From: Candidatus Palauibacter irciniicola
GTDB lineage: Bacteria > Gemmatimonadota > Gemmatimonadetes > Palauibacterales > Palauibacteraceae
Direction: 5' to 3'
Assembly (NCBI GenBank): GCA_009836005.1
Contig: VXWG01000053.1
Coordinates: 45,722 to 109,721 of the forward strand
Length of the DNA stretch: 64,000 nt
Notes under the pieces: generated by a model
What the model was told of the DNA's origin: nothing
The model's database searches: none
What the model saw: the letters and a program-made list of their open reading frames with translations, nothing else
Part shown: positions 18,760 to 62,800 of the stretch, in pieces
Position numbering within the stretch: position 1 is the first letter of the stretch
How the letters are laid out: each line of letters starts with the position of its first letter
Position numbers and translations under genes: made by a program

Positions 18760-18832
18760 TCCGGGGTAGCTCAGTGGCCAGAGCGGGTGGCTGTTAACCA
18801 CTAGGTCGTGGGTTCGAATCCCACCCCCGGAG
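18760..18832 (+). tRNA. tRNA-Asn(GTT)
   Basis: Cloverleaf with anticodon loop CTGTTAA and T-arm GGTTCGAATCC. Confidence 0.8.
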
Positions 18833-18865
18833 TCGGGCAGCAGGGCTCTTGCCACGGGCTGCCAT

Positions 18866-18938
18866 GGCTGGGTAGCTCAGGCGGTAGAGCACGGCGCTGA
18901 AAACGCCGGTGTCGGCGGTTCGACTCCGCCCCCAGCCA
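18866..18938 (+). tRNA. tRNA-Phe(GAA)
   Basis: Cloverleaf with anticodon loop CTGAAAA. Confidence 0.8.
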
Positions 18939-18979
18939 TTGCCACGGGCCGCCGACGGCCGGTTCGCGGGAAGCGGCAG

Positions 18980-19052
18980 AGGGGCGTAGCTCAATTGGTA
19001 GAGCACCGGTCTCCAAAACCGGCGGTTGGGGGTTCGAGTCCCTCCGCCCCTG
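18980..19052 (+). tRNA. tRNA-Trp(CCA)
   Basis: Near-identical to E. coli tRNA-Trp, with anticodon loop CTCCAAA. Confidence 0.8.
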
Positions 19053-19055
19053 TCG

Positions 19056-19127
<72 letters not shown>

Positions 19128-19153
19128 TGGAGCAGCTTGGAACGGGATAGCGG

Positions 19154-19228
19154 GCGCCCGTAGCTCAGTTGGATCAGAGCACCGGCCTTCTAAGCCGGGG
19201 GTCCCAGGTTCGAGTCCTGGCGGGCGCG
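19154..19228 (+). tRNA. tRNA-Arg(TCT)
   Basis: Cloverleaf with anticodon loop CTTCTAA. Confidence 0.8.
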
Positions 19229-19255
19229 TGGCAAAAGGGGACGACAGCGGCACGA

Positions 19256-19327
19256 GCCCCCATCGTCCAACGGCTAGGACACCACTCTTTCAAGGTGGAG
19301 ATAGGGGTTCGATTCCCCTTGGGGGTA
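19256..19327 (+). tRNA. tRNA-Glu(TTC)
   Basis: Cloverleaf with anticodon loop CTTTCAA and a Glu-type D-arm GTCCAACGGCTAGGAC. Confidence 0.75.
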
Positions 19328-19389
19328 CTGGACGGAAGGCAGGACGGGACCGACGCCAGCCCGTCCGCGTGAAGCGACAGTCGAAGCGC

Positions 19390-19462
19390 GGGGCCGTAGC
19401 TCAGCTGGGAGAGCGCTGCAATGGCATTGCAGAGGTCAGGGGTTCGAATCCCCTCGGCTCCA
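19390..19462 (+). tRNA. tRNA-Ala(GGC)
   Basis: Cloverleaf with anticodon loop ATGGCAT and a G3:U70-compatible acceptor stem GGGGCCG/CGGCTCC. Confidence 0.8.
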
Positions 19463-19517
19463 TTTCGCGGCCCGCGGTTTGCCCGCCGAGGCCGCGAACG
19501 AGAGCTTTGAAGCTGTA

Positions 19518-19591
<74 letters not shown>

Positions 19592-22936: not shown

Positions 22937-23011
22937 GCGCCCGTAGCTCAGCCTGGATAGAGCGCTTGCCTCCGGAGCAAGAGGTCACAGGTTCGAATCC
23001 TGTCGGGCGCA
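22937..23011 (+). tRNA. tRNA-Arg(CCG)
   Basis: Cloverleaf with anticodon loop CTCCGGA. Confidence 0.8.
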
Positions 23012-23082
23012 CTCGTCCCGGCGGAGCCAGCGGCACCGGTTCTCGGGGGCGACTCCCCGGACCCGAGGGTTCAGGGGCGCAG

Positions 23083-23167
23083 GCTCGGGTGGCGGAAATG
23101 GCAGACGCGCAGGATTCAGGATCCTGTGGGATTAAACTCCCGTGGGGGTTCGACTCCCCCCCCGAGC
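23083..23167 (+). tRNA. tRNA-Leu(CAG)
   Basis: Type II tRNA with a long variable arm and anticodon loop TTCAGGA. The D-arm GGCGGAAATGGCAGACGC is Leu-like. Confidence 0.75.
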
Positions 23168-23173
23168 ATTTCA

Positions 23174-23259
23174 GGCCCAGGTGGCGGAACTGGCAGACGC
23201 GCTAGCTTGAGGGGCTAGTGTCCTTTTACGGACGTGGAGGTTCGAATCCTCTCCTGGGC
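23174..23259 (+). tRNA. tRNA-Leu(GAG)
   Basis: Type II tRNA with anticodon loop CTTGAGG. Similar to E. coli tRNA-Leu. Confidence 0.75.
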
Positions 23260-23300
23260 ATGCAGCACGACATCGCCGATCGCTGTACGACCGGCTCCGA

Positions 23301-23374
23301 GCGCCCGTAGCTCAACTGGATAGAGCACCTGACTACGGATCAGGAGGTTGGGGATTCGAATTCTCCCGGGCGCA
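23301..23374 (+). tRNA. tRNA-Arg(ACG)
   Basis: Cloverleaf with anticodon loop CTACGGA. Confidence 0.8.
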
Positions 23375-48178: not shown

Positions 48179-48616
48179 CTACCAGGTCACGACGCCGTCG
48201 CGGCCGACCCGCAGTTCGTCGCCGGTCTCGACCCGGTCGAGCAGTTCGGGCCCCAGCCGATCCACGCACACGATCGCCGTGTCGAGCCAGACATCGGCCA
48301 GGATCAGGCCGCCGGCCGTGAGCGGATCCACCTCCCCGGGCAGGAGGAGTCCGGCGGGGGCGAGACCGAGTTCCGCGATGCGCTCCCAGCAGGGCCCGGC
48401 GGACGTCGAGCCCACGCAGAAGGGCGCGAGGACGATCCGTCCGGTGAGCGGTTCGCCGAAGAGTTCGGTGTTCTGCGGATCCCCGCACACGGCCGCGTCG
48501 ATCCCTCCGTCGAACTGGTCGCAGAAGCTCGCGAAGGGGTTGAACCCGACCCGGGATACGGCGGCGGGCGCCGCGACCTCCCCGCCGATGACCGCCCGGC
48601 CCTGGAGGCGGGGCAT
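48179..48616 (-). CDS. Aconitase X swivel-domain small subunit (DUF126)
   Basis: Roughly 145 aa. Adjacent to and overlapping the DUF521 gene (its start overlaps the large-subunit stop). Confidence 0.55.
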   Translation of the reverse strand: MPRLQGRAVIGGEVAAPAAVSRVGFNPFASFCDQFDGGIDAAVCGDPQNTELFGEPLTGRIVLAPFCVGSTSAGPCWERIAELGLAPAGLLLPGEVDPLTAGGLILADVWLDTAIVCVDRLGPELLDRVETGDELRVGRDGVVTW

Positions 48617-49974
48617 CAGGCGTGACTCCCGGAGGAGGTCCCCGAGGGGCCCGTCGTGGAGGCCGCGGCGGCACCCTCCGTGCCGCCTGTCACCATCACC
48701 CGGAGGAGTGCCTCATCGTCGAGCATGTACACGTTGCGACTGTAGTAGCGAAGCTTGTTCGAATTCGTGACGACGCAGGCGGGCGCGAGGATCGGGTCCT
48801 GCATGAACGCCTCCAGGCAGAAGGACCCCACGTGTCCTCCCGCGACGGCGAGGGTCGCGAAGCCCGGATGTTCGGCGCGGAAGCGGGACACCACGTCGGG
48901 GGCCGCGACGAAGACCGTCTCCACCGCGAGGCGGTCGCGTCCGGCGCGCGCGAGTTCGCCCTCCACCGCATCGGTCCACGCGCACAACTGGTCGTAGGTG
49001 AGGTGTGGGCAGCCGAGCAGGACCTTGTTCGGCCGCAGTTCCTCGACCGGGCGGTCGGCGCGCAGCGACGCTCCGACCGACTCGATCTGTCCCTCGTCGA
49101 TCGTCAGCCGGCGAGCGTCGTCGCGGATGAGCCGCCGGCCGTACCGCTTCGCCTCCACGGTGACGCCTTCCACGTGGAAGAGGCCGACCCCGCCCCCCAC
49201 GGAAGCGTTCGTCCCGAAGTCGCGCAGGAACTTCCCGCTGGCCGGGTGTTCGCCACCTTCGAGCATGTCCGCGAGGCCCGTCAACCAGGGGATCCCGGCT
49301 CCGACTTCCCGCCCGACGATGTAGCCGAGCACCTGGCCGTTGATCGGCCCCGCCGCCTCGACCTCGACGAGCCAGCTCGCGCGCCGCCCCTCGTCCGTCA
49401 GCAGACCGGCGAGCGGCGTCTTGCCGACGACGTTGGAGATGAGATCGAGGATCCCGGGATTCCGGTGCGTGCGCGCGCCGATGACGGAGTTCGCGTACAC
49501 CACCGCGGAGGATTCCGCCCACGCCACGATCTGGCCGTACGAGGGCCGGTTCGCGACCTCCTCGAACCACGGCGTGCAGGTCAGGCCGCCCGCGTCGCGC
49601 AGGCCCAGCTTCGTGAGCGCCTCCCGGTAGCGCACCTCGGTTGGGTAGGCGCGGGCGAGCCGCTTCCGCTGGTCGTCTGTCAGATCCGACAGCGTCTCGT
49701 TGAGGATCGTGGCCGGGTCGGCCGTGAAGGGAAGCGCGGCCCGGACCCCGGCGTCGACGAGCGACTCGAGAAACTCCGTCCGCGCCCCGACCCCGGGCTT
49801 GGACTCCGGAATCACGAGGTGCCCCGGACCCTCCACCGGCACGAGCCGCTCCGCATCCATCGCCTCGCCGAAGCGGACCATGGTGAGGAGGAGCTTCCGG
49901 GGGATCTCCCCTCGGCTCCCGTCGAGGACCTCTCGCTCGTCTCGGGTCAGATCCATCGTACCGTCGGCTGTCAC
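48616..49974 (-). CDS. Aconitase X catalytic large subunit (DUF521; cis-3-hydroxy-L-proline dehydratase-like)
   Basis: Roughly 450 aa with a Cys-containing AcnX-like core. The pair with the DUF126 gene is diagnostic of type II AcnX. Confidence 0.65.
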   Translation of the reverse strand: MTADGTMDLTRDEREVLDGSRGEIPRKLLLTMVRFGEAMDAERLVPVEGPGHLVIPESKPGVGARTEFLESLVDAGVRAALPFTADPATILNETLSDLTDDQRKRLARAYPTEVRYREALTKLGLRDAGGLTCTPWFEEVANRPSYGQIVAWAESSAVVYANSVIGARTHRNPGILDLISNVVGKTPLAGLLTDEGRRASWLVEVEAAGPINGQVLGYIVGREVGAGIPWLTGLADMLEGGEHPASGKFLRDFGTNASVGGGVGLFHVEGVTVEAKRYGRRLIRDDARRLTIDEGQIESVGASLRADRPVEELRPNKVLLGCPHLTYDQLCAWTDAVEGELARAGRDRLAVETVFVAAPDVVSRFRAEHPGFATLAVAGGHVGSFCLEAFMQDPILAPACVVTNSNKLRYYSRNVYMLDDEALLRVMVTGGTEGAAAASTTGPSGTSSGSHA

Positions 49975-50125
49975 CTCTTTGGACGTTCTCGGCCGTTCCC
50001 GGAGGCTCGGTCGCGGGCTGCGGATTCACAAGGCCGGCGCATGGTACGAAGATCTTCGTTGACAGGGCGGGCCGAACCACGTATCCTTTCGTACGAAGAT
50101 ATTCGTACATGCTTGCGCGGGGACG

Positions 50126-50521
50126 TTGCCAGGAGGGGGTGAAGCCTTGAGGGATCCGACATTCAGCGACCGGGAGCTGGACATCATGAGTGTCCTGTGG
50201 CGCCGCGGGTCCGGCTCCGTGAGCGAGGTCATGGAGGCGCTCGAGGACGAGGTCGGCTATACGACCGTTCTCAAGTTCCTTCAGATCCTCGAAAAGAAAG
50301 GTGCCGTCCGGCACGAGGCGGAGGGCCGCGCGTATCGGTACTTCCCGCTCGTCGCCTCCGAAACGGCGGGGGAGACGGCCCTGGCCCGGATCCGGGACAA
50401 GATCTTCGGCGGGTCGGCGGAACTCGTCCTCGCCCAACTCATCTCGGGCCGGGAGGTGTCGCCGGAGGAACTGGAGCGCATGCGGCGGATCCTCGATGAA
50501 CTGGAGGAGGGCGAGCCATGA
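50126..50521 (+). CDS. BlaI/MecI/CopY-family transcriptional repressor
   Basis: Winged-helix pattern DIMSVLWRRGSGSVSEVMEAL...YTTVLKFLQILEKKGAV. Start is probably a non-ATG codon. Confidence 0.7.
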   Translation: MPGGGEALRDPTFSDRELDIMSVLWRRGSGSVSEVMEALEDEVGYTTVLKFLQILEKKGAVRHEAEGRAYRYFPLVASETAGETALARIRDKIFGGSAELVLAQLISGREVSPEELERMRRILDELEEGEP

Positions 50522-52041
50522 CTCTCGCCACGATGATGTACGGGTTGATCGTCGCCGTCCTCGTCGCCGGGGCCGCGTGGTGCCTCGACCGGGGTCTGCG
50601 GACCCACGGGCGGCCGACCCGGTGGGTCTGGCTCGGCGCCCTCGGGGTCGGCGCGCTGGCGCCGTTTCTTCCCCGATTCCTTCCGGCCGCGGCAACCGCC
50701 GCCGGTCCCGGACCCTTCGCCCTTCCCGTCGGCGTCCTGTACGAACTCGGAACGGCGGCTCCCTCGCTTCCCGTGCAGGGCGGGAGCCTCCTCGCGGGGA
50801 TCGGGATCGAGGACGTCCTCGGAGCCCTGTGGGTCGTGGGTTCCGCCGTCGTCCTCATCCTCTTCGTTCTGATCTGCCTCCGGCTGCGGCGCCTGCGCGC
50901 GGCGTGGGAGCCTCGGGACGTCTGCGGCGAGGAGGTGCTGCGCTCGAAGCGGTTCGGGCCGGCCGTCGTGGGGCTCATCCGGTCACGGATCGTCCTTCCG
51001 TCGTGGGCCTTCGGCCTCGGCGAGAAGGAACTCGAGATGGTCGTGCTGCACGAGCGGGAACACGTGCGGGCGCGCGATCCGGTCCTCCTGACGGCGGGGC
51101 TCCTGCTCGCGGCGCTCTCGCCCTGGAATCCGGCGGTCTGGTGGTCGCTCGCCAGGCTCCGGCTCGCCGTGGAAGGGGACTGCGATCGCCGCGTCCTGGC
51201 CCGCGGCGCCTCCGCGCGGAGCTACGCGCGCCTTCTCTTGACAGTCGCCGCCGGATCCCGGCACACCCCGGAGCCGGCGCCTGCCCTGATTCGCGGCGGC
51301 CCCTCGGTAATCGAAAGGAGACTCATGATGATCAGGACCGCGACGAGGAAGCCTCGAATCCGGGCTTCCATCCTCACCGCCGCCGCCGGGTTGGGCCTGT
51401 TCGCCCTGGCTTGCGACACCCCAATTCCGCAGAGCCCGACCGACCCCGAGCGCGCCTCGCGCGTGGAGGGTGTCGTCGGTTCGGAAGGCGTCGTCAGCGT
51501 GGAGGGCGTCATCGGCTCCGAAGCTGCCGCCGGCCTGGAAGCAGCGGTCGGTCTGCAAGCGGAGATCGGGTACGTGGACGAAGATGGAACCTACCGGGTC
51601 CACGCGGGGAAATGGGCGGTGGACCCGGAAGCAGGCTTCGGATACGTGGACGAAGACGGGATCTTCCAGGCGGTCGATCTCGACCCGGAAGCCAAGGCGC
51701 GCATCCGCGCGACGGTCGAGCGCCTCGAGCACGCCAAGCGGGAAATCGAAATCACGCGCGAGAGGCTCGACCAGCGCCTGCAATCGGGCGAAATCACGGA
51801 AAAGGAGATCCCCAGGGATCTGTGGCTGCGTCTGGGAAATGTGACGGAGCAGCTCGAGGAGTTGCCGGATATTGAGTGGGAGGAATGGGAGGAGATTATG
51901 ACCGAGTTGGCCATGGAGGTCCGGCGGCTCCACGCGGCCTTCGAGGCAGGCGAGATCACGCGCGACGAGGCGGAGCAAATGCTACGGACCCACATGGAGG
52001 CCCGTAGCGCCCGTCTGCGGTGGCCCGACAGGCCGCGCTGA
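50518..52041 (+). CDS. BlaR1/MecR1-like M56 peptidase-domain signal transducer with a non-canonical C-terminal domain
   Basis: Four N-terminal TM helices, a HExxH zinc motif (VVLHEREHVRARD), then a C-terminus with tandem repeats (EGVVGSEGVVSVEGVIGSE; GYVDEDGTYRV / GYVDEDGIFQAV) and coiled coil. The start overlaps the BlaI stop (ATGA). Confidence 0.7.
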   Translation: MTLATMMYGLIVAVLVAGAAWCLDRGLRTHGRPTRWVWLGALGVGALAPFLPRFLPAAATAAGPGPFALPVGVLYELGTAAPSLPVQGGSLLAGIGIEDVLGALWVVGSAVVLILFVLICLRLRRLRAAWEPRDVCGEEVLRSKRFGPAVVGLIRSRIVLPSWAFGLGEKELEMVVLHEREHVRARDPVLLTAGLLLAALSPWNPAVWWSLARLRLAVEGDCDRRVLARGASARSYARLLLTVAAGSRHTPEPAPALIRGGPSVIERRLMMIRTATRKPRIRASILTAAAGLGLFALACDTPIPQSPTDPERASRVEGVVGSEGVVSVEGVIGSEAAAGLEAAVGLQAEIGYVDEDGTYRVHAGKWAVDPEAGFGYVDEDGIFQAVDLDPEAKARIRATVERLEHAKREIEITRERLDQRLQSGEITEKEIPRDLWLRLGNVTEQLEELPDIEWEEWEEIMTELAMEVRRLHAAFEAGEITRDEAEQMLRTHMEARSARLRWPDRPR

Positions 52042-52183
52042 TCCCCGACCCCGGCGCCGGAGACCGTTGCGGCCCGGCGTCCCCGGCGGCACCGTAACTC
52101 CGTTCGGTTGCGCCTCCGAGCCCTGACCCGAGGGTCGGGCCCGGAGGCGCCAGTCGCGGGACACTCCGACCCGGGGAACTCAC

Positions 52184-53713
52184 ATGACTCCGTCGCGCCG
52201 CCTCGCGGTTTCGTCCGCCGCCGTCCTGACCCTGACCGCCTTCGCTCCCGCCCCCACGGTCGACCTCGTCCCCGCCCTCGCGTGCGATGAACTGACCGCC
52301 ATGTCCTGGAGCGGTTTCACGCTGGACGAGGTGTCGGAGGTCGAGGCCGGAGCCAACGACCCGGCGCACTGCCGCGTGCGCGGGACGATCGACGAGGAGA
52401 TCCACTTCGAACTCCTCCTCCCGCTGGCCGAAGACTGGAACGGCCGCTTCCTCATGGGCGGCGGCGGTGGGTTCGTGGGGAGCGTACAGAACCAGGCGCT
52501 CCAGTTCGCGGGGCCGGTCTCGGTCCTGACCCGAGGGTTCGCCACGGTGGGGACGGACACGGGACACCAGGGCCCGGGCATCGACGCGAGCTGGGCGCTG
52601 AACCGGCCCGACCGCGAGGTGAACTTCGGCCACCGGGCGGTGCACGTGACGGCGGAAACGGCGAAGACGATCGTCCGCCTCTTCTACGGCCGCGACATCG
52701 AATACTCCTACTTCATCGGCTGCTCGCGCGGCGGGGGCCAGGCGATGATGTCGTCGCAGCGCTACCCGGACGACTTCGACGGCATCGTGTCCGGGGCGCC
52801 GGCCTACGACTGGCCCGGCCTCGGCGCCTTCTTCCTCCAGACCCAGCAGGCCCTGTATCCCGATCCGAACGACCTCGCGACCCCGGTGATCACCGACGAG
52901 GCGGCGGCCATCCTCGAAGCCGCGATTCTCGAGGCGTGCGACGCGAACGACGGCGTGGAGGACGGGTTCATGACGAACCCTCTGGCATGCGATATCGACA
53001 TCGCTTCGATCGAGGGACTGACCGACGAACAGCGGGCGGCCGCGGAAGTGGTCTACGGCGGCGCCCGCGTGGGAGATCGGCACGTTTACCCCGGCTTCCC
53101 GTTCGGGGGCGAGACCGACCAGGGCGGATGGAGGAGTTGGGTCACGGGGCGCGAGATGCAGCTGGGTCCGGCCGGACCCAACCTCCACTACGCCTTCGGC
53201 ACGCAGATGTACAAGTACATCATCTTCGACGACCCGGAGTTCGACTACTCCACGTACGACTTCAGCGACTACTTCTCGTGGGAGGAGGACACGCGCCGCG
53301 CCCGCGCGATCCTGAACGCGACGGACACGGACCTGAGCGGCTTCAAGACGGCGGGTGGGAAGCTGATCCTGTGGACCGGCTGGTCGGACTCGGCGATTCC
53401 CGCCAGCGGCACGATCGCCTACTACGAGAGCGTGGCCGCGGGCGACGAGGAGGCGGACGACTACACGCGGCTGTTCATGCTGCCCGGTGTGCTGCACTGC
53501 GCGGGTGGCCCGGGTCCCGACTTCGTCGACTGGATCGCCGCCATCCAGTCGTGGGTGGAGGAGGACGAGGCCCCCGAGCGGCTCGTCGCGTCGAAGTTCG
53601 GCGAGTCCGGCGTCGAGATGCAGCGGCCCGTGTGCCCGTGGCCGGCCTACGCCGCCTACAACGGCACCGGAGACCCGAAGCAGGAGGACAGCTTCGAATG
53701 CGTCGCACCGTGA
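52184..53713 (+). CDS. Secreted tannase / feruloyl-esterase family alpha/beta hydrolase
   Basis: Signal peptide. GCSRGG nucleophile motif in the tannase-family context, plus Cys residues typical of the lid disulfide. Confidence 0.7.
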
Positions 53714-54165
53714 TTACGCTCAGAGTGAATGGCGAGACGCACTCGCTGGACGTGGAACCCTCGACCCCGCTGCTCTACGTCCTCCGGAACGACCTCGGAC
53801 TCAGGGGGCCCCGGTTCGGCTGCGGCCTCGGCCAGTGCGGGACGTGCACGGTCCTCATGGACGGCCGCGCCATCCGCTCGTGCATGCGGCCGGTGTCCCG
53901 CGCGGAGGGCGAGATCACCACGCTCGAGGGACTCTCTGCCGACGGAGAGCTGGATCCCGTGCAGCAGGCGTGGATCGACGAGCAGGTGCCGCAGTGCGGG
54001 TACTGCCAGAACGGCCAGATTCTCACGGCCAAGGCGCTCCTCGACCGCAATCCGGACCCGAGTGACGAGGAGATTCGGCAGGGGATGAACGGCGCCCTCT
54101 GCCGCTGCATGACGTACTACCGGATCCAGTCCGCCGTGAGACGCGCCGCGGAGGCGAACCGATGA
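53698..54165 (+). CDS. [2Fe-2S]-binding small subunit of a molybdenum hydroxylase (IorA/CoxS-like)
   Basis: Plant-type ferredoxin cluster [12 protein letters not shown] and a second cluster QCGYCQNGQ...CRCMTY. Overlaps the tannase stop by 16 nt. Confidence 0.8.
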
Positions 54166-56564
54166 AGCGCCCCGAGGAGTTCCCGGCGGGGATGGAAGAG
54201 GCCCTCGTCCCGTGGGAGGGAAGCACCTCCCGCCGTGACTTCGTCAAGACGTCGGGGCTCTTCGTCCTCGGCTTCAGCAGCGTGGGCTTCAGCGGCGTGG
54301 GCGGCATCGGCCGGAACGGGTCCGGCGACCCCGGCGAGGCGAACCCGTATCCGGACCCGGATTATCTCCAGCTCGACTCGTGGCTCGTCGTGCACGAGGA
54401 CGGCACGGCCACCTTCTACGTCGGCAAGACCGACGGCGGGCAGGGGACCGGGACCGCCATGCGCCAGATGATGTGCGACGAACTCGACCTCGCCTACGAC
54501 CGGGCCACGCTCGTCATGGGCCGCACGGACATGACGGTGGACCAGGGCGGTTCGGGCGGTTCGGACGCGATCGAGCGGGATGCCCTGGCGGCGCGGCGGG
54601 TCGCGGCGGAGGCGCGCCGTGTCCTGCTGGAACTGGCTTCGGAGCGCTTCGAGGTCCCCGCCGACGAACTTGCCGTCAGCGAAGGCGTCATCTCCGTGGC
54701 CGCGGAGCCCGCCCGCACGGCCACGTACGGCCAGCTGATCGGCGGCCGACGCTTCGATGTTGCCCTCACGGGAAGGAACGTCAACGAGACGACCGGCCTC
54801 GCGGCCGTGAAGCCGGTCCGGGAACTGAAGATCGTCGGGCAGTCCGTCCCGCGGTACGACATCCCCGCCAAGGTCGACGGATCGCTCGAGTGGGCGGTCG
54901 ACGTGCGGCTCCCCGGCATGGTCCACGCGCGGAACGTGCGGCCGCCCTTCGCGGGCGCGCGGCTCGTCTCCATCGACGAATCTTCGGTGCGCGACATCCC
55001 CGGCTTCATCCGCGTCTTCCGTGAGGGGAACTACGTCGCGGTCGTCTGCGAGCGGGAGGAACAGGCGATCCAGGCGGCGGAGAGCCTCGCCCTCGAGTGG
55101 GAGCAGCCGGAAACGGCGCCGTTCCCGTCCTCCGAGGACCTTTTCGACTACATGCGGGGCGCGACCCCGGTCGGCGCGGGGACCGGAACATCTCCTCGTC
55201 CCCGCGTGGAGGGGGATCCCGACGCGGCGCTGGCGGGCGCGGCGTCGGTCGTTGAAGCCGGCTACGACATCCCCTTCCAGGGACACACGGCGATCGGGCC
55301 CGCCCACGCCGTGGCCGACCCCTCGGACGGGCAGATGACGGTCTACACGAACGACATGAAGCCCTACAGCCACCGCACAGGGATCGCCGAGTTCCTCGGC
55401 ATGCCGCCGGAGCGGGTGCGGGTGATCTGGATGGAGGGTCCGCAGCTCTACGGGCGCACGGCGGCGGACGACGCGGGCTTCGAGGCGGCGTACCTGGCCC
55501 GCGAGCTGGGCCGCCCCGTGCGGATGCAGTGGATGCGGCACGAGGAGACGGCCTGGGACACGAAGGGCCCGGCCTTCGCCATCGACCTGCGCGGGGGGCT
55601 GGACGACGCCGGCAACGTGGTCGCGCTCGACTATCGCGCCCGGATCGCGAACTACGCGCACGTCGGCTACAACCAGGCCGACACGGTGCTCATCGCCCAG
55701 CTCATGGGCATCCGGCCCGAGCGGCCGTCTCCCGGCGGCGGCCGGGGCCCGGACGAGATGTACCACATCCCGAACCGGCGGGAGGAGACGCGGGCCGTCC
55801 GCTTCCCGCTCGCCTTCGAGACGCCGCTCCGCACCGGCAACCTGCGCGACCCCAACGGGCCGCAGACGACCTTCGCCGGCGAATCGTTCATCGATGAGAT
55901 GGCCGCGGCCGCGAACGCGGACCCGGTCGAGTTCCGCCTCCGTCTCCTGCGCGGGACGACGGAGGACGACGCGACGTTCCGCCGGGCCCGCTCCATCGCC
56001 GTCGTCGAGGCGGCGGCCGAGGCGTTCGGCTGGGAGCCGCGACCCTCGCCCCGGGAGCCGGGCGACGGGCCCATCCTCACCGGGCGCGGCATCTCCTACG
56101 GGTACCGCGTACAGACGGCCGTCGCGACGGTCGCGGAGGTGGAGGTCGACCGGGAGAGCGGGCGCGTGTGGGTCAAGCGCATGGTGTGTGCGCACGACTG
56201 CGGCCTCGTGATCAACCCCGACGGTCTTGAAAGCACGATCCAGGGGAACCTCCTGCACGGGATCAGCCGGACCCTGTACGAGGAGGTGCAGTTCGACGGC
56301 GAGCGGGTGACCAGCGTCGACTGGCGCACGCACCCGACGCTGACGCACCGGGACGCGCCCGAGCAGATCGATGTCGTGATCGTGAACGGCGACCCGAACC
56401 CGGACCGGCCGGACCTGCCGCACTACGGAGCGGGGGAGCCCTCGCACCGCACGGTCCCCGCGGCGATCGCGAACGCGATCCACGACGCGACCGGCGTGCG
56501 CATGCGCCGCATCCCGCTGCGCCCGGAGCGTGTGCTCGCGGAACTCACGGCGGCGGGAGCGTAG
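54162..56564 (+). CDS. Molybdopterin-binding large subunit of a xanthine-dehydrogenase-family oxidoreductase (IorB / aldehyde oxidoreductase-like), Tat-exported
   Basis: Tat signal [15 protein letters not shown] with MoCo-binding domains. ATGA overlap with the small-subunit stop. No FAD subunit present. Confidence 0.8.
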
Positions 56565-56579
56565 GTTCTCCCGCGCAGG

Positions 56580-57665
56580 TCAGATCTTGATGTAGATGCG
56601 GCGGCGGTGAAGGACCCACATGATGCCCAGCCAGAAGGTGACCTGGGCCAGCGCCATCGCGAGCGATCCACCGTAGTCGCCCGCCCACGACCGGAACGCG
56701 TTCTCGTACAGCCACGCGCTCAGCGGCATGCCCCCGTCGCCCCCGACCCGGATCCGGGCCAGCGTCTTGGCGAACATGCCGGAGGCGACGAACACGGCGA
56801 TCGAGTTCATTCCGTAGATGACGAAGGGCGTCACCCACCCCCCGCGCAGCCGCTTCACGTCGATGAGCCAGTACATGGCGCCGAACAGGAGGAGCGCCGT
56901 CCCAGCCGTGAAGAGGACGTAGGAACTCGACCACAGGTTCTTGTTGATCGGGAACACCGTGTCCCACAGGAATCCCAGCACGACGAGCCAGGCGCCGACG
57001 ATCCACATTCCGCGCGAGAGCTCCCCGCCGGAGCGGTCCGACCGCAGCCACTCGCCGCAGAAGATCCCCAGGAGGCACGTCCCGATGGCCGGTAGCGTCG
57101 AGAGGAGTCCCTCCGGATCCCACGTTCCCTGCCACAGCCGGTCGCCCATGAGGAACCGGTCGATCCGGGCCCCGAGATTCCCGTCCGGCGTCAGGTCTCC
57201 CGCGACGAGGGCCCAGTACCCGAAGAGGAGCACCCCCACCGCGATCCACCGCACGCGCGCGGAGCCCCACAGGTAGAGCGCCGCCGCCGCGCAGTAGACG
57301 AGGCCGATCCGCTGCAGCACACCGTAGAGGCGCATGTCGAACAGGTCGAAGTCGGGAATCGCCCGCATCGCGAGCCCGAGCCCGATGAGGATGAGCGAGC
57401 GCCGGACCACGTGCCGGAACAGCCGACCCCGTCCGGCGCCCTCCGCGAGGCGGCGCGAGAAGGAGAAGGGGATGGCGACGCCGACGATGAAGAGGAAGTA
57501 GGGGAAGATGAGGTCGGTCGGGGTCCACCCGTGCCATTCCGCGTGGGCCAGTGGCGCGTAGACGTAGGCCCAACTGCCGGGGTTGTTGACGAGGATCATC
57601 GCCGCGATCGTCAGGCCCCGGAACGCGTCCAGCGAGACGACGCGCCCGCCTGTCGGTTCGGTCAT
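56580..57665 (-). CDS. DUF1624 / acyltransferase-3-like membrane protein (HGSNAT-like)
   Basis: 10-11 TM helices with the N-terminal motif VVSLDAFRGLTIAAMILVNNPG. Confidence 0.6.
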   Translation of the reverse strand: MTEPTGGRVVSLDAFRGLTIAAMILVNNPGSWAYVYAPLAHAEWHGWTPTDLIFPYFLFIVGVAIPFSFSRRLAEGAGRGRLFRHVVRRSLILIGLGLAMRAIPDFDLFDMRLYGVLQRIGLVYCAAAALYLWGSARVRWIAVGVLLFGYWALVAGDLTPDGNLGARIDRFLMGDRLWQGTWDPEGLLSTLPAIGTCLLGIFCGEWLRSDRSGGELSRGMWIVGAWLVVLGFLWDTVFPINKNLWSSSYVLFTAGTALLLFGAMYWLIDVKRLRGGWVTPFVIYGMNSIAVFVASGMFAKTLARIRVGGDGGMPLSAWLYENAFRSWAGDYGGSLAMALAQVTFWLGIMWVLHRRRIYIKI

Positions 57666-57701
57666 GACGACCCCCGCGCTATGCCGGAAGCTCTCTTCGG
57701 G

Positions 57702-60548
57702 CTACCTGCGGAAGCGGTCTCCGCCGCGATCCCTGCCACCCCCGCCGGCCATCGAACGGTTCCCGAGATACCAGGTGAAGTTCAGCATCACGTACTGCGT
57801 AAGCGACTCGACCCGGCGCTCCTGGATGAAGCCGGGCGAGTTCGTGTACGTCACCCCCTGATTCTGGCCCAGAAGGTCGAACGCCACCAGCCGGATCTCG
57901 GCCTGGTCGTTGAGGATGCGGCGCTGCAACGAAGCCTCCCACAGCGCGACGTTCCGCCCCGGGCCGAACAGATCCTGGTCGTAGAGCCGCCACTGGAACT
58001 CCGTACCCAGCGTCCACGCACCGAGGTAGAAGTCGGCGCTCCCGTACAGCGTCGAGTTGACGTAGTCCTCGTTCAACTCCTCGTTCAGGGAATAGCTGAC
58101 GTCGCTGAGCGTCAGCTTGGCGCCGCCGCGCACGTCGTAGTCCTCCTTGGCGCGGTTCTCGAGCTCGATCCCGAACGTGTGCGACAGCGACCGGCTCCGG
58201 TTCTCGACCTGGTTCACGAACTCGTTCGAACTGGAGTAGCGGAGATCGTAGTTCAGGTCCACCTGCCCGCCCAGCCAGCGCAGCGGCCGCCCGAAGCTTC
58301 CGCCGCCGTTCGCCGACCACGCGTTCCCGAGGTTCACCGGCGAGATCGTCTGGAGTCCCCGCTGCGTCACCGTGCGGGACTGGGCGATGTCGTTCGTCGT
58401 GACGCTGACGTTCGCCCACGTGAACAGGTTGACGAAGCTGAACGTGTCGAAGAAACGGTACTCCGTCCGCAGGCGGTGTGTGTATTCGGGCTGCAGGTCC
58501 GGGTTCCCCACCCGGATCCGCAGCGGGTCGCGGTTGTCGACGAAGGGCTGGAGATCCGTCATGCGCGGTTCGCGCGTCGACGTCGAGTACCGGAACTGGA
58601 GCGTGCGCATGTCGTCGACCTGCATCCGGTATTCGGCGTTGGGCAGGACGTGCGTGTACCCGTTGGCGATCTCCTCGCTCCGGTCGAGGATCGTCCCCTC
58701 CAGATTCGAGCCCTGCAGGCGCAGTCCGAGCACGAACCGTCCGGCCTCGCTCGTGCGGTTGAAGCGAAAACCTCCGCGCAGATAGCTGTACGTCCGCTCG
58801 AACCCGGAGGTGAGCAGAGGGTTCAGCGTGCGGCCGTCAGGCCCGATGTCGAACACCGACTGGTTCTCGTCCTCGGCGGTCGCGCTCCGCTCGCCGTAGA
58901 CCTCGAGCATGGATTCCCAGGGCATGGGCTGGGTCATCGAGAGGCGGACGGAGTGCGTCAGCGTCTGACCGACATTCGTCTGCTCCTGCAGTACGTCGCC
59001 GGCCCGTGCCCGCGGGTTCTCCACGTTGCCCTCGATCGACGACGCGAGGTTCGTCAGACGGTCCGAATCGCTGAGGTTCACCCGGGCCTCCGCGAAGAGG
59101 CTCCGCCCGCTGTCGTCGAGCCGCTTGCGCCACGTGAGCCGGGCATCGCCGCCCACATCATCGCTGTCCACGTCGTAGTTCGTCGCCGCGGCCGTGAGAA
59201 ACTGCCCGGTGCCGGAGCGCGTGTCCTGGAAGTCGACGCGGTCGAGGAGCGAGGCGCGGGCGTTCAGATTTCCGCGCAGCCGCAGTTCGTGGCCCTCGGC
59301 GAGCGTGAACTGGGAGTTCAGGTTGACGCGGTGCGACGAGTTCTCGGTGTCCGTGCGCGTGGCTCGGTCGACGAGGGATGACGCGCTCGTGCCGAGGAGT
59401 TGCTCCTGCTGTCGCGTCTCGTTCTGGAAGTTGTCGAGCGTGCTGATGCGGTAGCTCGTCCGGATCCAGTGGTCGTCGTTCCCGCCGAAGTCGTGGTTGA
59501 CGTTGAACGCCAGCATGCGGGTCTCGGTGAGCCCGTCGTCGCCCCCGCCGCCTCGACCGAAATCCCGTCCGCCGAACGACATGGCGTCGCCCCACCCGAA
59601 CCCGGCCTGGTTCACGTTGTTCGCGCTCCCGAGGAGGGCAAGCTGCGTGGTGGGCGAAAAGCGGTTGATCGACACGGCGCCCGCGTACGGAATCCCGCCG
59701 GCCACCGTCCCGGATTCGCCGCCGGCCAGCCGCCGCGCGGCCACCGACTCGCCGAATCCGGGCGCCGCGGACGCGTTGTCCACGTCCGCCCCGAGTCCGC
59801 CCGACGTGCGGCCGAAGTAGCCCGAGCGCGCCTCTTCCTTGAGTTCCAGGTTGATCGTCCGCTCTTCCTCGCCATCGGCGATGCCCGTGAACTCGGCCAT
59901 GTCCGACTCTTTGTCGTAGACCTCCACCTTCTCCACGGCCTCGGCGGGCAGGTTCTGGGTCGCCATCGTGGGGTCGCCCCCGAAGAACTCCCGCCCGTCG
60001 ACGAGGACGTTCTCGACCTCTTCGCCCTGCGCCGTGATCGATCCGTCGGTCTCGACCTCGATCCCCGGAAGCTGCCGGAGGAGGTCCTCCACCGTGGCGT
60101 TGGGCCGGGTCCGGAAGGCGAGCGCGTTGTACCCGAGGGTGTCCCGCCGGTTCAGGAAGGGGACGTGGTCGAGGGTGACGACGAGCGGGTCCACCTCCAC
60201 CGCCATCACCTCGAGGTTGATCGTGCCGACGTTCACGTCCTCGCCCGCCAGGGAGAGGTCCTGCCGCACCGTGCCGTATCCGAGCAGGGTGACCTGCAGG
60301 ATGTATTCCCCGGGTCCGAGATCTCCGAGGGCGAAGACGCCGTCTCCGTTGGAGGTCGTGAACCGGGTGAGGACCGAGTCGGGTTTCGCCAGCGCCACGA
60401 CCATGGCGCCGTTCAGCCCCGCGCCGTCCGTGTCGGCGATCACGCCGCTCACGGTGTACTCGGCCTGGGCCTCCGCGGCGCGGGGCGAGACCGCCGCGAA
60501 CGCCACCCCGATCGCGAGCAGCGCCAGGATCCGTGCCGGCCGCCTCAT
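57702..60548 (-). CDS. TonB-dependent outer-membrane receptor with an N-terminal carboxypeptidase-regulatory-like domain
   Basis: Signal peptide MRRPARILALLAIGVAFAAVSPRAAEAQA. CarbopepD_reg-like beta-sandwich, a plug domain (DLLRQLPGIEV) and a long beta-barrel ending in an aromatic residue. ATG at 60548 by codon arithmetic. Confidence 0.8.
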   Translation of the reverse strand: MRRPARILALLAIGVAFAAVSPRAAEAQAEYTVSGVIADTDGAGLNGAMVVALAKPDSVLTRFTTSNGDGVFALGDLGPGEYILQVTLLGYGTVRQDLSLAGEDVNVGTINLEVMAVEVDPLVVTLDHVPFLNRRDTLGYNALAFRTRPNATVEDLLRQLPGIEVETDGSITAQGEEVENVLVDGREFFGGDPTMATQNLPAEAVEKVEVYDKESDMAEFTGIADGEEERTINLELKEEARSGYFGRTSGGLGADVDNASAAPGFGESVAARRLAGGESGTVAGGIPYAGAVSINRFSPTTQLALLGSANNVNQAGFGWGDAMSFGGRDFGRGGGGDDGLTETRMLAFNVNHDFGGNDDHWIRTSYRISTLDNFQNETRQQEQLLGTSASSLVDRATRTDTENSSHRVNLNSQFTLAEGHELRLRGNLNARASLLDRVDFQDTRSGTGQFLTAAATNYDVDSDDVGGDARLTWRKRLDDSGRSLFAEARVNLSDSDRLTNLASSIEGNVENPRARAGDVLQEQTNVGQTLTHSVRLSMTQPMPWESMLEVYGERSATAEDENQSVFDIGPDGRTLNPLLTSGFERTYSYLRGGFRFNRTSEAGRFVLGLRLQGSNLEGTILDRSEEIANGYTHVLPNAEYRMQVDDMRTLQFRYSTSTREPRMTDLQPFVDNRDPLRIRVGNPDLQPEYTHRLRTEYRFFDTFSFVNLFTWANVSVTTNDIAQSRTVTQRGLQTISPVNLGNAWSANGGGSFGRPLRWLGGQVDLNYDLRYSSSNEFVNQVENRSRSLSHTFGIELENRAKEDYDVRGGAKLTLSDVSYSLNEELNEDYVNSTLYGSADFYLGAWTLGTEFQWRLYDQDLFGPGRNVALWEASLQRRILNDQAEIRLVAFDLLGQNQGVTYTNSPGFIQERRVESLTQYVMLNFTWYLGNRSMAGGGGRDRGGDRFRR

Positions 60549-61384
60549 CGGAGCCCTCCGTCGAAGGGACGGCGCCGGTTGCCGGCCCCGCGCGTGGCCC
60601 GGATCTCCTCGAGCTTCTCCGCCACTAGGGCTTCGTACTCCTCGCGCGTGACCATCTCCCCGTCCGTCGGCGGGGCGATCGCGACATCGCCGAGGCCATC
60701 GAGGTTCACCTCGGTCGCCGAGTAGAGGAGGTCTCCACCGTCGACCGTGAGCACGAGGATGAGGCCGGGGAGCCCGCCGTACTGGCCGGGGCCCGCCTGC
60801 ACCGGGATCTGGGGCGTGAACCAGGCTTCGATCTCCGATCCGTCGTGGACGGCCGTCGCCTGCTGCACCATGTAGCCGAGGAACTCGCGCTGTTCGGTTC
60901 CGAGCTTCCATGCATACGCAGGCCGGTCTCCGGCGATCAGGAACGTGCGCCCCATGAACTCGCGGGTCTCCGTCATCGCGCCGCTCCCGAAGTCCACATA
61001 GGCCTGAACCACATCCTCCTGGTCGCTGCGGGAGGCCGAGCCCATTCTGAGCCGCATCGCCAGCCCGAGGGCGCGGCGATCCATGCGGTCGGAGTCGCGA
61101 GCGCCGCCGCGGGGGGCCGCCGCTTCCTCATCGGGGTCCGGCATCATGATGGATCGGGCGCCGTCGAAGCGGAGGACCATGGAGGCCGTGTTCTGCGCCG
61201 CAAGGCGGTCGCGGAACGCCGCCATGCGCTCCGGCACCTCGAAGTCGAACTGCACCGAACGCAGGTAGTGAACATTCCCCGCCTGCGCGCCGAGCGCCGC
61301 CGGCGCGAAGCCCGCAACGGCCACCGGGAGGGCCGCCCGAAGGGAGAATTGGAACCGTTGCCGCAACCGTCGTCGTGTACTCAT
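60545..61384 (-). CDS. GLPGLI-family protein
   Basis: Contains the literal GLPGLI motif (YGGLPGLILVLTVDGGDLLYSATEV) and a signal peptide. The stop overlaps the receptor start (ATGA). Confidence 0.65.
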   Translation of the reverse strand: MSTRRRLRQRFQFSLRAALPVAVAGFAPAALGAQAGNVHYLRSVQFDFEVPERMAAFRDRLAAQNTASMVLRFDGARSIMMPDPDEEAAAPRGGARDSDRMDRRALGLAMRLRMGSASRSDQEDVVQAYVDFGSGAMTETREFMGRTFLIAGDRPAYAWKLGTEQREFLGYMVQQATAVHDGSEIEAWFTPQIPVQAGPGQYGGLPGLILVLTVDGGDLLYSATEVNLDGLGDVAIAPPTDGEMVTREEYEALVAEKLEEIRATRGAGNRRRPFDGGLR

Positions 61385-61438: not shown

Positions 61439-62800
61439 TCACGTTGTAGAGTCGATGGCCACCCGGCGCACCTCGCGGCCGAGGACTCGACGCAGGCGGG
61501 CGAAGAGGAGGACGGCCACGACGGCGAGTCCGGCGGCCAGGCCCCACCACAGGCCGCGCGGGCCCCAGTCGGCACGGAAGGCGAGGAAGTAGCTGACCGG
61601 GACGCCGAGCAGCCAGAAGCCGAGGGCGTTGACCAGGAAGGGCGTGAAGGTGTTTCCGGCGCCGCGAAAGACGCCGGCCGCGACGGTCTGGAGGCCATCG
61701 GCGACCTGGAAGACGCCGGCGATCGGGATCAGGGAGGCCGCGATCGCGATGACCGCGAGATCGTGCGAGTAGAGGCCGGCCCAGAAGCGCGGGAAGGCGA
61801 GAAAGGCGCCCGCGGTCGCGAGCATGAAGACGCCGCTGAGCTGGATCCCCGCGGCGGCGGCCCGCCGCGCCCCGTCCATGTCCTCCTGTCCGACCGCGTG
61901 TCCCACGCGTACGGCGGAAGCGGCCGCGATCCCGAACGGCACCATGAAGGTGAGCGCGGCGAGGTTGAGCGCGATCTGGTGCCCCGCCATCGCCTCGGTG
62001 CCCAGCCAGCCCATCATGACGCCGATCACGGCGAACGCGCCGAACTCGAGTTGCTGCTGGAAGCCGATCGGGGTGCCGAGCCGCACCATGCGCACGAGCG
62101 CGCCCCGATCGAGCGCCTCGCGCCGGAACCGGCCCAGATAGGGACGCATGGAGGACCAGGACAGCCAGAGAAGCGCGACCGCCATGCACCAGCGCGCCAG
62201 GCTCGACCCCCACGCCGAGCCCACGGCCCCCAACCGCGGAACCCCGAGATTGCCGTAGATCAGCACCCAGTTGAGGAAGGCGTTCAGGACGTTCGCCCCC
62301 GCGATCGTCCACACGATCGGCGCCACGCGATGCATCGCCTGCAGACTCTGCCGGAGCACGACGAACGCGTAGAAGGGGAGCATCCCGAGGATCGACCCCA
62401 GCGCGTATCCGCCGGCCACGGGCACGACATCCGCGGGCTGCCGCAGCAGGGCGAACACGCGCGCCGCGGGCAGGAAGAGCAGGGACGTGATCGCCGTCAG
62501 AAACAGGGTGAGGACGAACGCCCGCTGAATCCCCCGGGCGGCGGCTTCATGGTCCCCCGCCCCCACGCCCTGCGCGACGATGGGATCGAGGGACATGAGC
62601 ACGCCCATCCCGAACACGGCGATCTGGAAGAAGTAGATGTTGCCCAGGCCGACGGCGGCGAGATCGGTCGCCGACAGGCGGCCGACCATGAGCGTGTCCA
62701 CGACGCCCAGCATCATGATGCCGACCTGAACCGTCACGATCGGGAGGGCCAGATCCAGCATGCGCGCGAGGTCCGCGCGGCGGGGGGTGAGGTTCATCGC
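61439..62800 (-). CDS. MATE-family efflux transporter
   Basis: 12 TM helices with MATE N-terminal pattern LALPIVTVQVGIMMLGVVDTLMVGRL. ATG at 62800 preferred. Confidence 0.8.
   Translation of the reverse strand, partial: AMNLTPRRADLARMLDLALPIVTVQVGIMMLGVVDTLMVGRLSATDLAAVGLGNIYFFQIAVFGMGVLMSLDPIVAQGVGAGDHEAAARGIQRAFVLTLFLTAITSLLFLPAARVFALLRQPADVVPVAGGYALGSILGMLPFYAFVVLRQSLQAMHRVAPIVWTIAGANVLNAFLNWVLIYGNLGVPRLGAVGSAWGSSLARWCMAVALLWLSWSSMRPYLGRFRREALDRGALVRMVRLGTPIGFQQQLEFGAFAVIGVMMGWLGTEAMAGHQIALNLAALTFMVPFGIAAASAVRVGHAVGQEDMDGARRAAAAGIQLSGVFMLATAGAFLAFPRFWAGLYSHDLAVIAIAASLIPIAGVFQVADGLQTVAAGVFRGAGNTFTPFLVNALGFWLLGVPVSYFLAFRADWGPRGLWWGLAAGLAVVAVLLFARLRRVLGREVRRVAIDSTT

Follow-up and report, generated by a model that had tools for sequence, protein, structure and literature searches.

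A putatively autoregulated BlaI/BlaR1-family module without a transpeptidase domain, located upstream of a tannase and molybdenum hydroxylase operon in Candidatus Palauibacter

Gene content and organization of the locus

The 64-kb stretch of DNA analyzed here (the window) belongs to Candidatus Palauibacter, an uncultured marine Gemmatimonadota bacterium, and carries a block of five genes on the plus strand. The first gene encodes a winged-helix repressor of the BlaI family (50147..50521; PF03965, E 6e-28), whose sequence matches in the PDB are BlaI, MecI, and the BlaI of Mycobacterium tuberculosis. Its open reading frame begins at 50126, but the TTG at 50147, which is preceded by AGGAGG (50131–50136), is the likelier start and yields a protein of 124 aa; the orthologues are called at 123–124 aa. 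The second gene encodes an M56 protein (50518–52041; PF05569, E 1.6e-24) and overlaps blaI by an ATGA (50518–50521), which bears out the coupling of a BlaI-type repressor to an HExxH protease proposed in the first-pass annotation.

After a spacer of 142 nt follow the genes of a hydrolase of the tannase/feruloyl-esterase family (52184..53713; PF07519, E 2e-100), the [2Fe-2S] small subunit of a molybdenum hydroxylase (53698..54165; PF00111 and PF01799), and a molybdopterin-binding (MoCo) large subunit with a twin-arginine signal (54162..56564; PF20256 and PF02738; Tat motif STSRRDFVK). The Pfam matches thus recovered the entire gene set of the first-pass annotation, and because the next gene (56580–57665) is located on the opposite strand, the operon also lacks an FAD subunit, as stated there. 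Its description as tightly overlapping holds for the window, where the tannase and [2Fe-2S] genes share 16 nt and the [2Fe-2S] and molybdopterin genes 4 nt, but not for several orthologous loci, where the 16-nt overlap is replaced by a gap of 30–100 nt, nor for the junction with the M56 gene. The tannase has a signal peptide and the GCSxG and HC motifs common to the PF07519 family (GCSRG at residue 179, HC at 438). A [2Fe-2S] small subunit, a MoCo large subunit with a Tat signal, and the lack of an FAD subunit are shared with the IorAB type, which comprises two-subunit, isoquinoline 1-oxidoreductase-like molybdenum hydroxylases. The locus differs from characterized IorAB-type and PF07519 systems in that the NCBIfam matches of its [2Fe-2S] and molybdopterin subunits are all below the equivalog cut-offs.

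A conserved protease domain with a variable periplasmic tail

The M56 membrane zinc-protease domain (residues 1–299, 50518..51414; PF05569) has four transmembrane helices, as predicted by hydropathy and the positive-inside rule, and its catalytic motifs HEREH (residues 178–182, 51049–51063) and EGDCD (residues 219–223, 51172–51186) form invariant columns across 28 homologues. At the periplasmic exit of the fourth helix (51358–51414) lies the near-invariant juxtamembrane motif ACDTPIPQ (51409..51432), one of the two best-conserved peptides with which loci were located; alignment A1 shows no variation at A298, C299, P302, P304, and Q305, and conservation of at least 90% at D300 and T301. Profile searches of the M56 protein gave no match to the penicillin-binding domain PF00905, and similarity to canonical BlaR1 is confined to residues 158–282 (residues 180–308 of Staphylococcus aureus BlaR1 in the PDB; E 0.18).

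The tail (residues 300–507 and the stop codon, 51415..52041) is acidic (48 D/E versus 25 K/R in 208 residues) and consists of repeats of 18 and 72 nt as well as helices. The presence of tandem short repeats, already noted in the first-pass annotation, was confirmed at both the DNA and the protein level: 18-nt repeats (2.8 copies at 51461–51510 and 2.3 copies at 51520–51560) encode the 6-aa repeats EGVVGS/EGVVSV/EGVIGS and EAAAGL/EAAVGL, and are followed by two GYVDEDG units (51568–51660) and by helices that carry GEIT motifs (at 51787 and 51949) and show weak matches to the SHOCT clan. AF2 predicts disorder for residues 300–365, small hairpins, and four helices, with long helices at residues 390–501. 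A fold search of the tail against the PDB returned no match, neither to a beta-lactam sensor nor to any other structure, in agreement with the earlier view that the extracytoplasmic domain is not penicillin-binding.

A search among 1.84 billion representatives yielded eight matches to the tail, all from the same clade (one full-length orthologue and seven short, apparently truncated products), and no homologue outside of it. The description of a novel sensor domain in the first-pass annotation was nevertheless overstated, because M56 proteins with an unassignable, often unstructured C-terminus represent the most abundant BlaR architecture, and penicillin-binding sensors are present in only about 6% of BlaR proteins (PMC13492132, 2026). 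Judging from the models and the alignment, the tail is a lineage-specific, repeat-built appendage, largely disordered and helical, which is weakly constrained and has no ligand-binding fold of a known kind.

Such a tail might be merely a spacer or oligomerization appendage, with the signal (e.g., stress at the membrane or envelope, or a partner protein) received by the membrane part or ACDTPIPQ, or with BlaI being turned over constitutively. This would agree with the high conservation of the N-domain and ACDTPIPQ even in paralogues with different tails, with the high dN/dS of the tail (0.59, versus 0.12–0.23 for neighboring genes and 0.23 for the M56 domain), with the predicted disorder, with the weak resemblance of the GEIT helices to SHOCT-type motifs, and with the many indels by which whole repeat units were gained or lost between orthologues (zero to four copies of GYVDEDG; some tails of only ~150 residues). 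However, the clade as a whole retains the last ~50 residues (ELAMEVRRL..EAGEIT..EAEQML), and the 43–45% outgroups again show a GEMT motif, so some part of the tail must be under selection; moreover, if the protein works like BlaR1, its extracytoplasmic C-terminus would be the sensor. We consider a tail without sensory function unlikely.

Putative autoregulation of the blaI–M56 pair

The upstream region of blaI is divergent except for a single conserved island, which consists of a sigma-70-like promoter (TTGACA-17 nt-TATCCT, plus strand, 50059..50087; 10 of 12 positions match) bracketed by two dyads with the consensus TACGAA-N4-TTCGT(A/T). The dyads were identified by motif search and conservation; OP1 (TACGAAGATCTTCGTT, 50045..50060) overlaps the −35 hexamer, and OP2 (TACGAAGATATTCGTA, 50092..50107) covers the expected transcription start. 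All four strand-matches in the window (0.34 expected) are located 5' of blaI, and no further copy was found elsewhere in the window or in 16 orthologous loci. OP1 is kept in 14 of the 15 Palauibacter loci whose blaI upstream region is present, and the motif, with a variable center, recurs in about 12 distant Gemmatimonadota loci. Among 120 metagenome matches to the dyad, 27 lie 20–80 nt 5' of BlaI homologues, on contigs that span 37–71% G+C. At the sequence level, autoregulation of the pair is well supported, and a repressor whose sole visible target in the window and the orthologous loci is itself implies the existence of further targets elsewhere.

Autoregulation as the only visible regulatory link, together with a weak M48 co-match of one M56 paralogue, would also be expected if there were no signaling switch and the protein acted mainly as a membrane quality-control protease related to M48/HtpX, with BlaI merely setting its level. 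This is highly improbable, given that linkage to a BlaI gene is reported for about 96% of M56 proteins and that the characterized members are signal transducers (PMC13492132); moreover, the coupled pair and its dyads are kept across distant Gemmatimonadota, and the dyad recurs over the wide range of G+C contents given above.

Relationship of the pair to the tannase operon

The first-pass annotation had interpreted the pair as a switch that controls the degradation of aromatic esters or N-heterocycles. Accordingly worded, the pair would sense such compounds (including tannins) or their products in the periplasm and turn on the tannase operon, with read-through from the derepressed blaI promoter as the likeliest route. 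All but one of the 14 informative loci located via M56 retain the co-directional order blaI–M56–tannase, and M56 and tannase are adjacent on the same strand in 13 of 15 Palauibacter genomes; the order of the five-gene block holds although the flanking genes vary on both sides. A canonical U-tract terminator was not found between M56 and tannase, and read-through could therefore couple the two genes. In the only detached pair with a readable M56 gene (L005), codon 419 is a premature stop, a single case that could be a sequencing error. In CenIR of Clostridioides difficile, a characterized atypical BlaIR member, regulation acts most strongly on a neighboring gene, which is controlled via its own promoter (PMC13492132). 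Order conservation, the lack of a U-tract terminator, and the CenIR precedent also count against the pair being a separate unit.

Against control of the tannase operon stands the absence of the blaI dyad 5' of tannase in the window (including 52041–52184, where operators had been suspected), in the 16 orthologous loci, and within 8 kb of tannase in L040. Instead, the spacer contains a nearly invariant non-coding block (52059..52100, plus strand; mean JC distance 0.029, versus a dS of 0.33–0.42 in the flanking genes), which is not a dispersed repeat and holds a bipartite motif, CGTTGCGG-N12-GGCGGCACCGTAA (consensus of the second half, GGCGGCACCGTrA). The motif is also kept 5' of tannase in L040 and L163, two genomes in which the tannase block has been inverted and lies behind a MatE gene; the second instance of the MatE–tannase order came to light via its tannase. 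Between this block and the tannase start lies a very stable, GC-rich hairpin without a U-tract (52110..52150, plus strand; −41.1 kcal/mol for the folded stretch 52100–52165, z −3.4), which shows only one covarying pair, has no match in Rfam, and is not kept in sequence in L040 or L163. The repeat turnover and relaxed constraint of the tail and its lack of a ligand-binding fold likewise disagree with a sensor of aromatic compounds; blaI and tannase have dN/dS values of only 0.16 and 0.13.

The synteny seen in Palauibacter is limited to this genus, both from the side of the tannase and from that of the pair. Outgroup tannases (64–74% identity) have neither a BlaI–M56 pair immediately 5' nor adjoining [2Fe-2S] and molybdopterin genes, and of all examined loci, only those of Palauibacter link these three genes. 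Conversely, distant blaI–M56 loci contain no tannase or molybdopterin genes; other blaI–M56 pairs are followed by convergent genes, and distant relatives of the two modules never co-occur. Among outgroup M56 proteins with GEMT-repeat tails, the gene neighborhood was read for P0063 only, and it contains no tannase. Control of the tannase operon by the pair is not supported, and we regard it as rather unlikely. What endures of the first-pass interpretation is a module for regulated proteolysis with a sensor other than a beta-lactam-binding domain.

An atypical BlaIR module and its putative mechanism

The pair is a new but ordinary member of the atypical BlaIR class, a type that is common but poorly understood. 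We consider it probable that it represents an autoregulated, transpeptidase-less module of the BlaI/BlaR1 family that is separate from the tannase–[2Fe-2S]–molybdopterin operon. Conserved dyads and family knowledge suggest that BlaI dimers bind both operators, over the −35 region and the start site, and repress blaI–M56. The M56 protein would reside in the inner membrane, with its HEREH...EGDCD site predicted to be cytoplasmic and its tail periplasmic. By analogy to BlaR1/MecR1, some envelope or periplasmic cue may act on the tail or ACDTPIPQ and activate the protease, which would then cleave BlaI and presumably derepress the promoter. Transcription of the tannase operon would start from the conserved element that precedes it, and the operon's position after M56 may simply reflect a genus-level gene order that is inverted in some genomes.

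The canonical BlaI/BlaR1 and MecI/MecR1 systems of S. aureus and Bacillus licheniformis share with the pair the winged-helix repressor, the autoregulated operon, a promoter surrounded by two palindromic operators that end in TAC...GTA, and a four-helix zinc protease with a (here predicted) cytoplasmic active site. The pair differs from these systems by the lack of a PF00905 sensor, by the gene order (blaI, then the ATGA-coupled blaR), and by the lack of a divergent or adjacent target gene with an operator. In the atypical systems (CenIR, BlaIR of M. tuberculosis and Mycobacterium abscessus, and PvmSR of Pseudomonas aeruginosa; bioRxiv 10.64898/2026.08.03.742534), as here, a BlaI gene adjoins an M56 protease with HExxH/ExxxD motifs and no penicillin-binding domain, and the C-terminal region of CenR likewise has no identifiable domain and is predicted to be largely unstructured. 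By contrast, the present pair belongs to a different phylum, its tail of tandem repeats and GEIT helices is unrelated in sequence, and, unlike in CenIR, the promoter region of the neighboring gene has no operator.

The closest paralogues are M56 proteins with TonB_C, Plug, or CarboxypepD_reg tails (35–55% identity over the M56 domain), the nearer of which (L017–L027 and L030; 43–54%) also share the ACDTPIPQ region and the same blaI operator, whereas profile searches detected neither TonB_C nor Plug in the tail described here. Proteins with TonB_C, Plug, or CarboxypepD_reg tails represent the second commonest M56 architecture and are abundant in Gemmatimonadota and Bacteroidota.

Gene layout and placement within the BlaI/BlaR1 family

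Gene calls and Pfam profiles of the window place five genes on the plus strand between 50126 and 56564. They encode a BlaI-type repressor (PF03965, E = 6e-28, residues 14–125), an M56 membrane metalloprotease of 507 amino acids (PF05569, E = 1.6e-24), a protein of the tannase/feruloyl-esterase family (PF07519, E = 2e-100), a [2Fe-2S] subunit, and a molybdopterin-binding subunit with a twin-arginine motif (STSRRDFVK). The ATG of the M56 gene overlaps the blaI stop codon as ATGA (50518–50521), and a spacer of 142 nt separates the M56 gene from the tannase gene, which in turn overlaps the [2Fe-2S] gene by 16 nt; the overlap between the genes of the two hydroxylase subunits is 4 nt. The BlaI protein more likely starts at the TTG at 50147 than at 50126, judging from the preceding AGGAGG (50131–50136) and from its orthologues, which are called at 123–124 amino acids. 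The tannase possesses both catalytic motifs (GCSRG at residue 179, containing the GCSxG serine, and HC at residue 438). The gene following that of the molybdopterin subunit lies on the opposite strand, and the operon therefore lacks an FAD-binding subunit. The combination of a small [2Fe-2S] subunit and a large molybdenum cofactor subunit with a Tat signal is that of the two-subunit, FAD-less molybdenum hydroxylases; such a Tat-exported enzyme is of the IorAB type and not unusual. The gene and domain calls thus agree with the first-pass annotation, which had described a BlaI repressor, an ATGA-coupled M56 protease, a tannase, and the two hydroxylase subunits, and had correctly noted both the 16-nt overlap and the missing FAD subunit. 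The 16-nt overlap is not kept in orthologous loci. The G+C content of the window is about 70%, and close homologues carry the annotation Candidatus Palauibacter, Gemmatimonadota.

The blaI–M56 pair shows every testable feature of the broad BlaI/BlaR1 (BlaIR) family, and the locus is a predicted proteolytic switch of this kind. Repressor and protease genes are adjacent, with the ATGA overlap and two conserved palindromic operators at their promoter. The hallmarks of the canonical beta-lactam systems, namely a PF00905 sensor and an adjacent, operator-bearing target gene of the blaZ or mecA type, were not found. Among roughly 15,000 M56 proteins surveyed, the most common architecture is an M56 domain followed by a C-terminus without an identifiable domain; a transpeptidase domain is present in only about 6%, and about 96% are encoded near a BlaI gene (PMC13492132). 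The locus therefore falls into a known, largely uncharacterised kind of atypical BlaIR systems, to which it adds a member. Such systems are numerous, and the signal or regulon is known for almost none of them.

Operators and autorepression of blaI

BlaI contains a Penicillinase_R winged-helix domain, with PDB matches to BlaI, MecI, and 2g9w. Two operator dyads upstream of its gene, TACGAAGATCTTCGTT at 50045–50060 and TACGAAGATATTCGTA at 50092–50107, bracket a sigma-70-like promoter (TTGACA-17-TATCCT). When the window was aligned with 15 Palauibacter loci, the dyads and both promoter hexamers formed a single conserved island, whereas the rest of the upstream region could not be aligned, as the genes there vary from locus to locus. 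About a dozen distant Gemmatimonadota loci likewise have these dyads ahead of blaI, spaced 44–47 nt apart and with a variable 4-nt centre. Among 120 metagenome matches to TACGAAGANNTTCGTA, 27 have a BlaI or M56 homologue nearby, and the sites that could be placed lie 20–80 nt ahead of a BlaI homologue (30–45% identity), on contigs with 37–71% G+C. The scan pattern of 14 bases is too unspecific to identify regulon members and is informative only for enrichment beside BlaI genes; the 93 matches without a BlaI neighbour are uninterpretable. Together, the conserved island, the distant loci, and the metagenome matches render a putative autorepression by BlaI at the two dyads well supported on comparative grounds. 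The presence of the operator beside such divergent BlaI homologues, across such a range of G+C contents, suggests that a single operator type, TACGAA-N4-TTCGTA, is used by a BlaI subfamily that is large and spans many taxa. The operator directly upstream of the BlaI homologues (30–45% identity) in the metagenome loci L043–L162 reads TACGAAGAnnTTCGTA.

Elsewhere in the 64-kb window, a search allowing up to three mismatches to the dyad query recovered no further sites, and looser patterns yielded only weak sites inside coding sequences. The genes for the large and swivel subunits of an aconitase-X (AcnX; 48179–49974, minus strand) are transcribed divergently from blaI. Among the orthologous loci, only L001–L003, L010, and L011 contain them, so that the locus boundary on the blaI side is also variable. 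AcnX as a target of BlaI in a blaZ-type arrangement was rejected, because its genes are missing from many orthologous loci in which the operators persist; beyond the shared blaI sites, no dyad was found upstream of AcnX.

The M56 protease and its periplasmic tail

The motifs HEREH (residues 178–182) and EGDCD (219–223) are invariant among 28 homologues (H178, E179, H182, E219, and D223), and a PDB sequence match aligns the active-site region with the HEYAH/EVEAD region of Staphylococcus aureus BlaR1. Hydropathy predicts transmembrane helices at residues 5–23, 37–55, 103–121, and 281–299. The stretch 122–280 contains 29 lysine and arginine residues, residues 56–88 contain none, and the C-terminal tail is acidic. 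Together with the positive-inside rule, this predicts a topology of the BlaR1 type, with four transmembrane helices, a basic cytoplasmic loop (122–280), and an extracytoplasmic tail (300–507). The protein thus resembles S. aureus BlaR1 in predicted topology and active-site region but lacks its PF00905 sensor.

In none of the 28 homologues does the tail match a Pfam domain above threshold, PF00905 included, and the NCBIfam model blaR1_generic, with 40.9 bits, falls short of its cut-off of 400, consistent with the earlier statement that the extracytoplasmic domain is not a penicillin-binding fold. It has no sequence match in the PDB, and its matches among 1.84 billion representative proteins number only eight, of which one is a full-length orthologue and seven are short products that appear to be truncated. 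The tandem short repeats noted earlier are indeed present: 18-nt DNA repeats at 51461–51510 and 51520–51560 encode units of the EGVVGS type and EAAxGL units, followed by two 24-residue GYVDEDG units. Orthologous tails vary by whole repeat units, with zero to four copies of GYVDEDG and lengths of about 150–220 residues, and only the last 50 or so residues (ELAMEVRRL...EAGEIT..EAEQML) are well kept. The GEIT helices give weak, sub-threshold scores with SHOCT-type profiles (PF09851, PF08044, and PF22746; the best has E = 0.002 and 18.2 bits, where the cut-off is 27), with 14 such matches to these three families among the 28 homologues.

AlphaFold2 modelling from the alignment of orthologues (mean pLDDT 51) yielded disorder at residues 300–365, small hairpins at 366–385, and four helices at 390–501; a single-sequence run of residues 360–507 gave a concordant picture (pLDDT 66.7). 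The structural check proposed in the first-pass annotation thus produced no known beta-lactam sensor, and Foldseek found no PDB match to the tail model better than E = 1.5, although the low to moderate confidence of the models means that such fold searches carry little weight. Pairwise Nei–Gojobori estimates for 15 sequences (the window and 14 loci) gave a dN/dS of 0.59 for the tail and 0.23 for the N-terminal domain (residues 1–299), with 0.16 for BlaI, 0.15 for the [2Fe-2S] subunit, 0.13 for the tannase, and 0.125 for the molybdopterin subunit; the tail-averaged value could hide positively selected sites. Because Pfam, PDB sequence, and Foldseek searches returned no penicillin-binding or other known sensor fold, and in view of the repeat turnover and the dN/dS values, the tail is no beta-lactam sensor, nor does it resemble a folded ligand-binding domain. 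In being unassignable and largely unstructured, it is similar to the tails of most M56 proteins, including CenR, the protease of the atypical CenIR system of Clostridioides difficile (PMC13492132).

The sequence ACDTPIPQ (residues 298–305; 51409–51432) at the periplasmic end of the fourth transmembrane helix is essentially invariant. Distant Gemmatimonadota matches run through it and stop at about residue 304–311, with the onset of divergence between the tails; possible roles are those of a cleavage site, a lipidation-like site, or a signal relay. The M56 orthologue of locus L005 (8001–9503), whose genome has an inverted gene order, carries an in-frame stop at codon 419 (GERL*AGEIT) in an otherwise intact frame. 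The stop removes the conserved C-terminal helices; the gene could have become a pseudogene recently, or the 9x long-read assembly could be wrong at this position. Another Palauibacter genome (L166, 5001–9430) encodes a tandem of M56–TonB_C, BlaI, and a second M56–TonB_C; the genus therefore harbours several BlaIR-type modules that are paralogous and differ in their tails.

Control of the tannase operon

The co-directional adjacency of M56 and tannase genes is frequent within the genus, and no U-tract or canonical terminator was found in the spacer between them. Both features favour a link between the switch and the tannase/molybdenum operon, for instance a coupling by read-through from a derepressed blaI promoter, as does the CenIR system, whose main target is a neighbouring gene (PMC13492132). 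Such coupling is unlikely, however, because the tannase has a separate conserved upstream element that stays with it in both gene orders, because the association of the two modules is limited to the genus, and because the BlaI operator dyads sought between M56 and tannase are absent from the spacer (52042–52183) and from the region upstream of the tannase in every orthologous locus. The orthologous locus L040 lacks a BlaI dyad within 8 kb. Of the original interpretation, the predicted proteolytic switch stands, and no evidence was found for its control of the esterase/molybdenum operon. It is unlikely that the tail acts as a sensor after all and changes rapidly because it follows a variable external cue, such as sponge host or phage molecules, and/or that blaI read-through couples the operon; if true, read-through coupling would be the first demonstrated case of a BlaIR system in control of aromatic-ester catabolism.

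The element upstream of the tannase is a bipartite motif, CGTTGCGG-N12-GGCGGCACCGTrA (52059–52100), which is nearly invariant in both gene orders. The mean Jukes–Cantor distance is 0.10 for the spacer and 0.029 for this block, with a dS of 0.33–0.42 for the flanking genes. The motif recurs at 7915–7955 in L040 and at about 5905–5945 in the orthologous locus L163, with variable spacing between its halves; the left half, CCCGGAGACCGTTGCGG, is present in two to three tandem copies in L001 and L011. None of the spacings inspected by eye fits a sigma-70, sigma-54, or ECF promoter, and a dispersed REP-like repeat was rejected because the block is single-copy in the window. The spacer can form a hairpin of −41 kcal/mol with only one covarying pair. 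A Moco riboswitch (RF01055) or other Rfam RNA in the spacer was dismissed for want of a covariance-model match, with only chance-level matches in 51950–52250 at E values up to 10.

The locus is a case in which plain adjacency to a catabolic operon misleads; the neighbour was moved by inversion and is preceded by a conserved control element of its own. The main by-products of the analysis are this bipartite element and the definition of the TACGAA-N4-TTCGTA operator, which could be sought in complete genomes to predict what atypical BlaIR systems regulate.

Gene orders and wider synteny

The gene order of the window is common to 13 loci. In L040 and L163, the tannase–FeS–Mo genes instead adjoin a MatE gene, downstream of it. 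The MatE gene of the window lies at about 61439–62797 on the minus strand, beyond a TonB-dependent receptor gene and a gene of the Porph_ging family. A block of about 9 kb (52184–61375), comprising the tannase–FeS–Mo genes, an HGSNAT-like gene, and the receptor and Porph_ging genes, is therefore inverted between the M56 and MatE flanks relative to L039, L040, and L163. Inversion via long inverted repeats was rejected, as none were found at the block ends, and a 10-nt stretch (GTGTCCGATC) common to L040 and the MatE flank of the window was treated as chance because it is missing from L163. Separate from the regulatory claim, the tannase–FeS–Mo operon and the neighbouring, convergent TonB-dependent receptor operon may form one unit for the uptake and degradation of an aromatic substrate in sponge-associated Gemmatimonadota.

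The association of BlaI–M56 with the tannase is confined to the genus, and the synteny with the esterase operon expected among relatives does not extend further. Tannase homologues of 64–74% identity have other neighbours, none with BlaI–M56 immediately upstream or FeS/Mo genes beside them; at one such locus (L165), an unrelated-looking BlaI–M56 pair lies on the opposite strand at a distance of about 4 kb. Among outgroup M56 proteins with GEMT-repeat tails, the neighbourhood was read for one, P0063, and downstream of its gene lies a convergent HicAB pair. Convergent genes also adjoin other blaI–M56 pairs downstream. At gathering thresholds, the Rfam search of the window returned nothing but tRNAs; two clusters of tRNA genes, with nine genes at 18611–19591 and four at 22937–23374, lie entirely on the plus strand.
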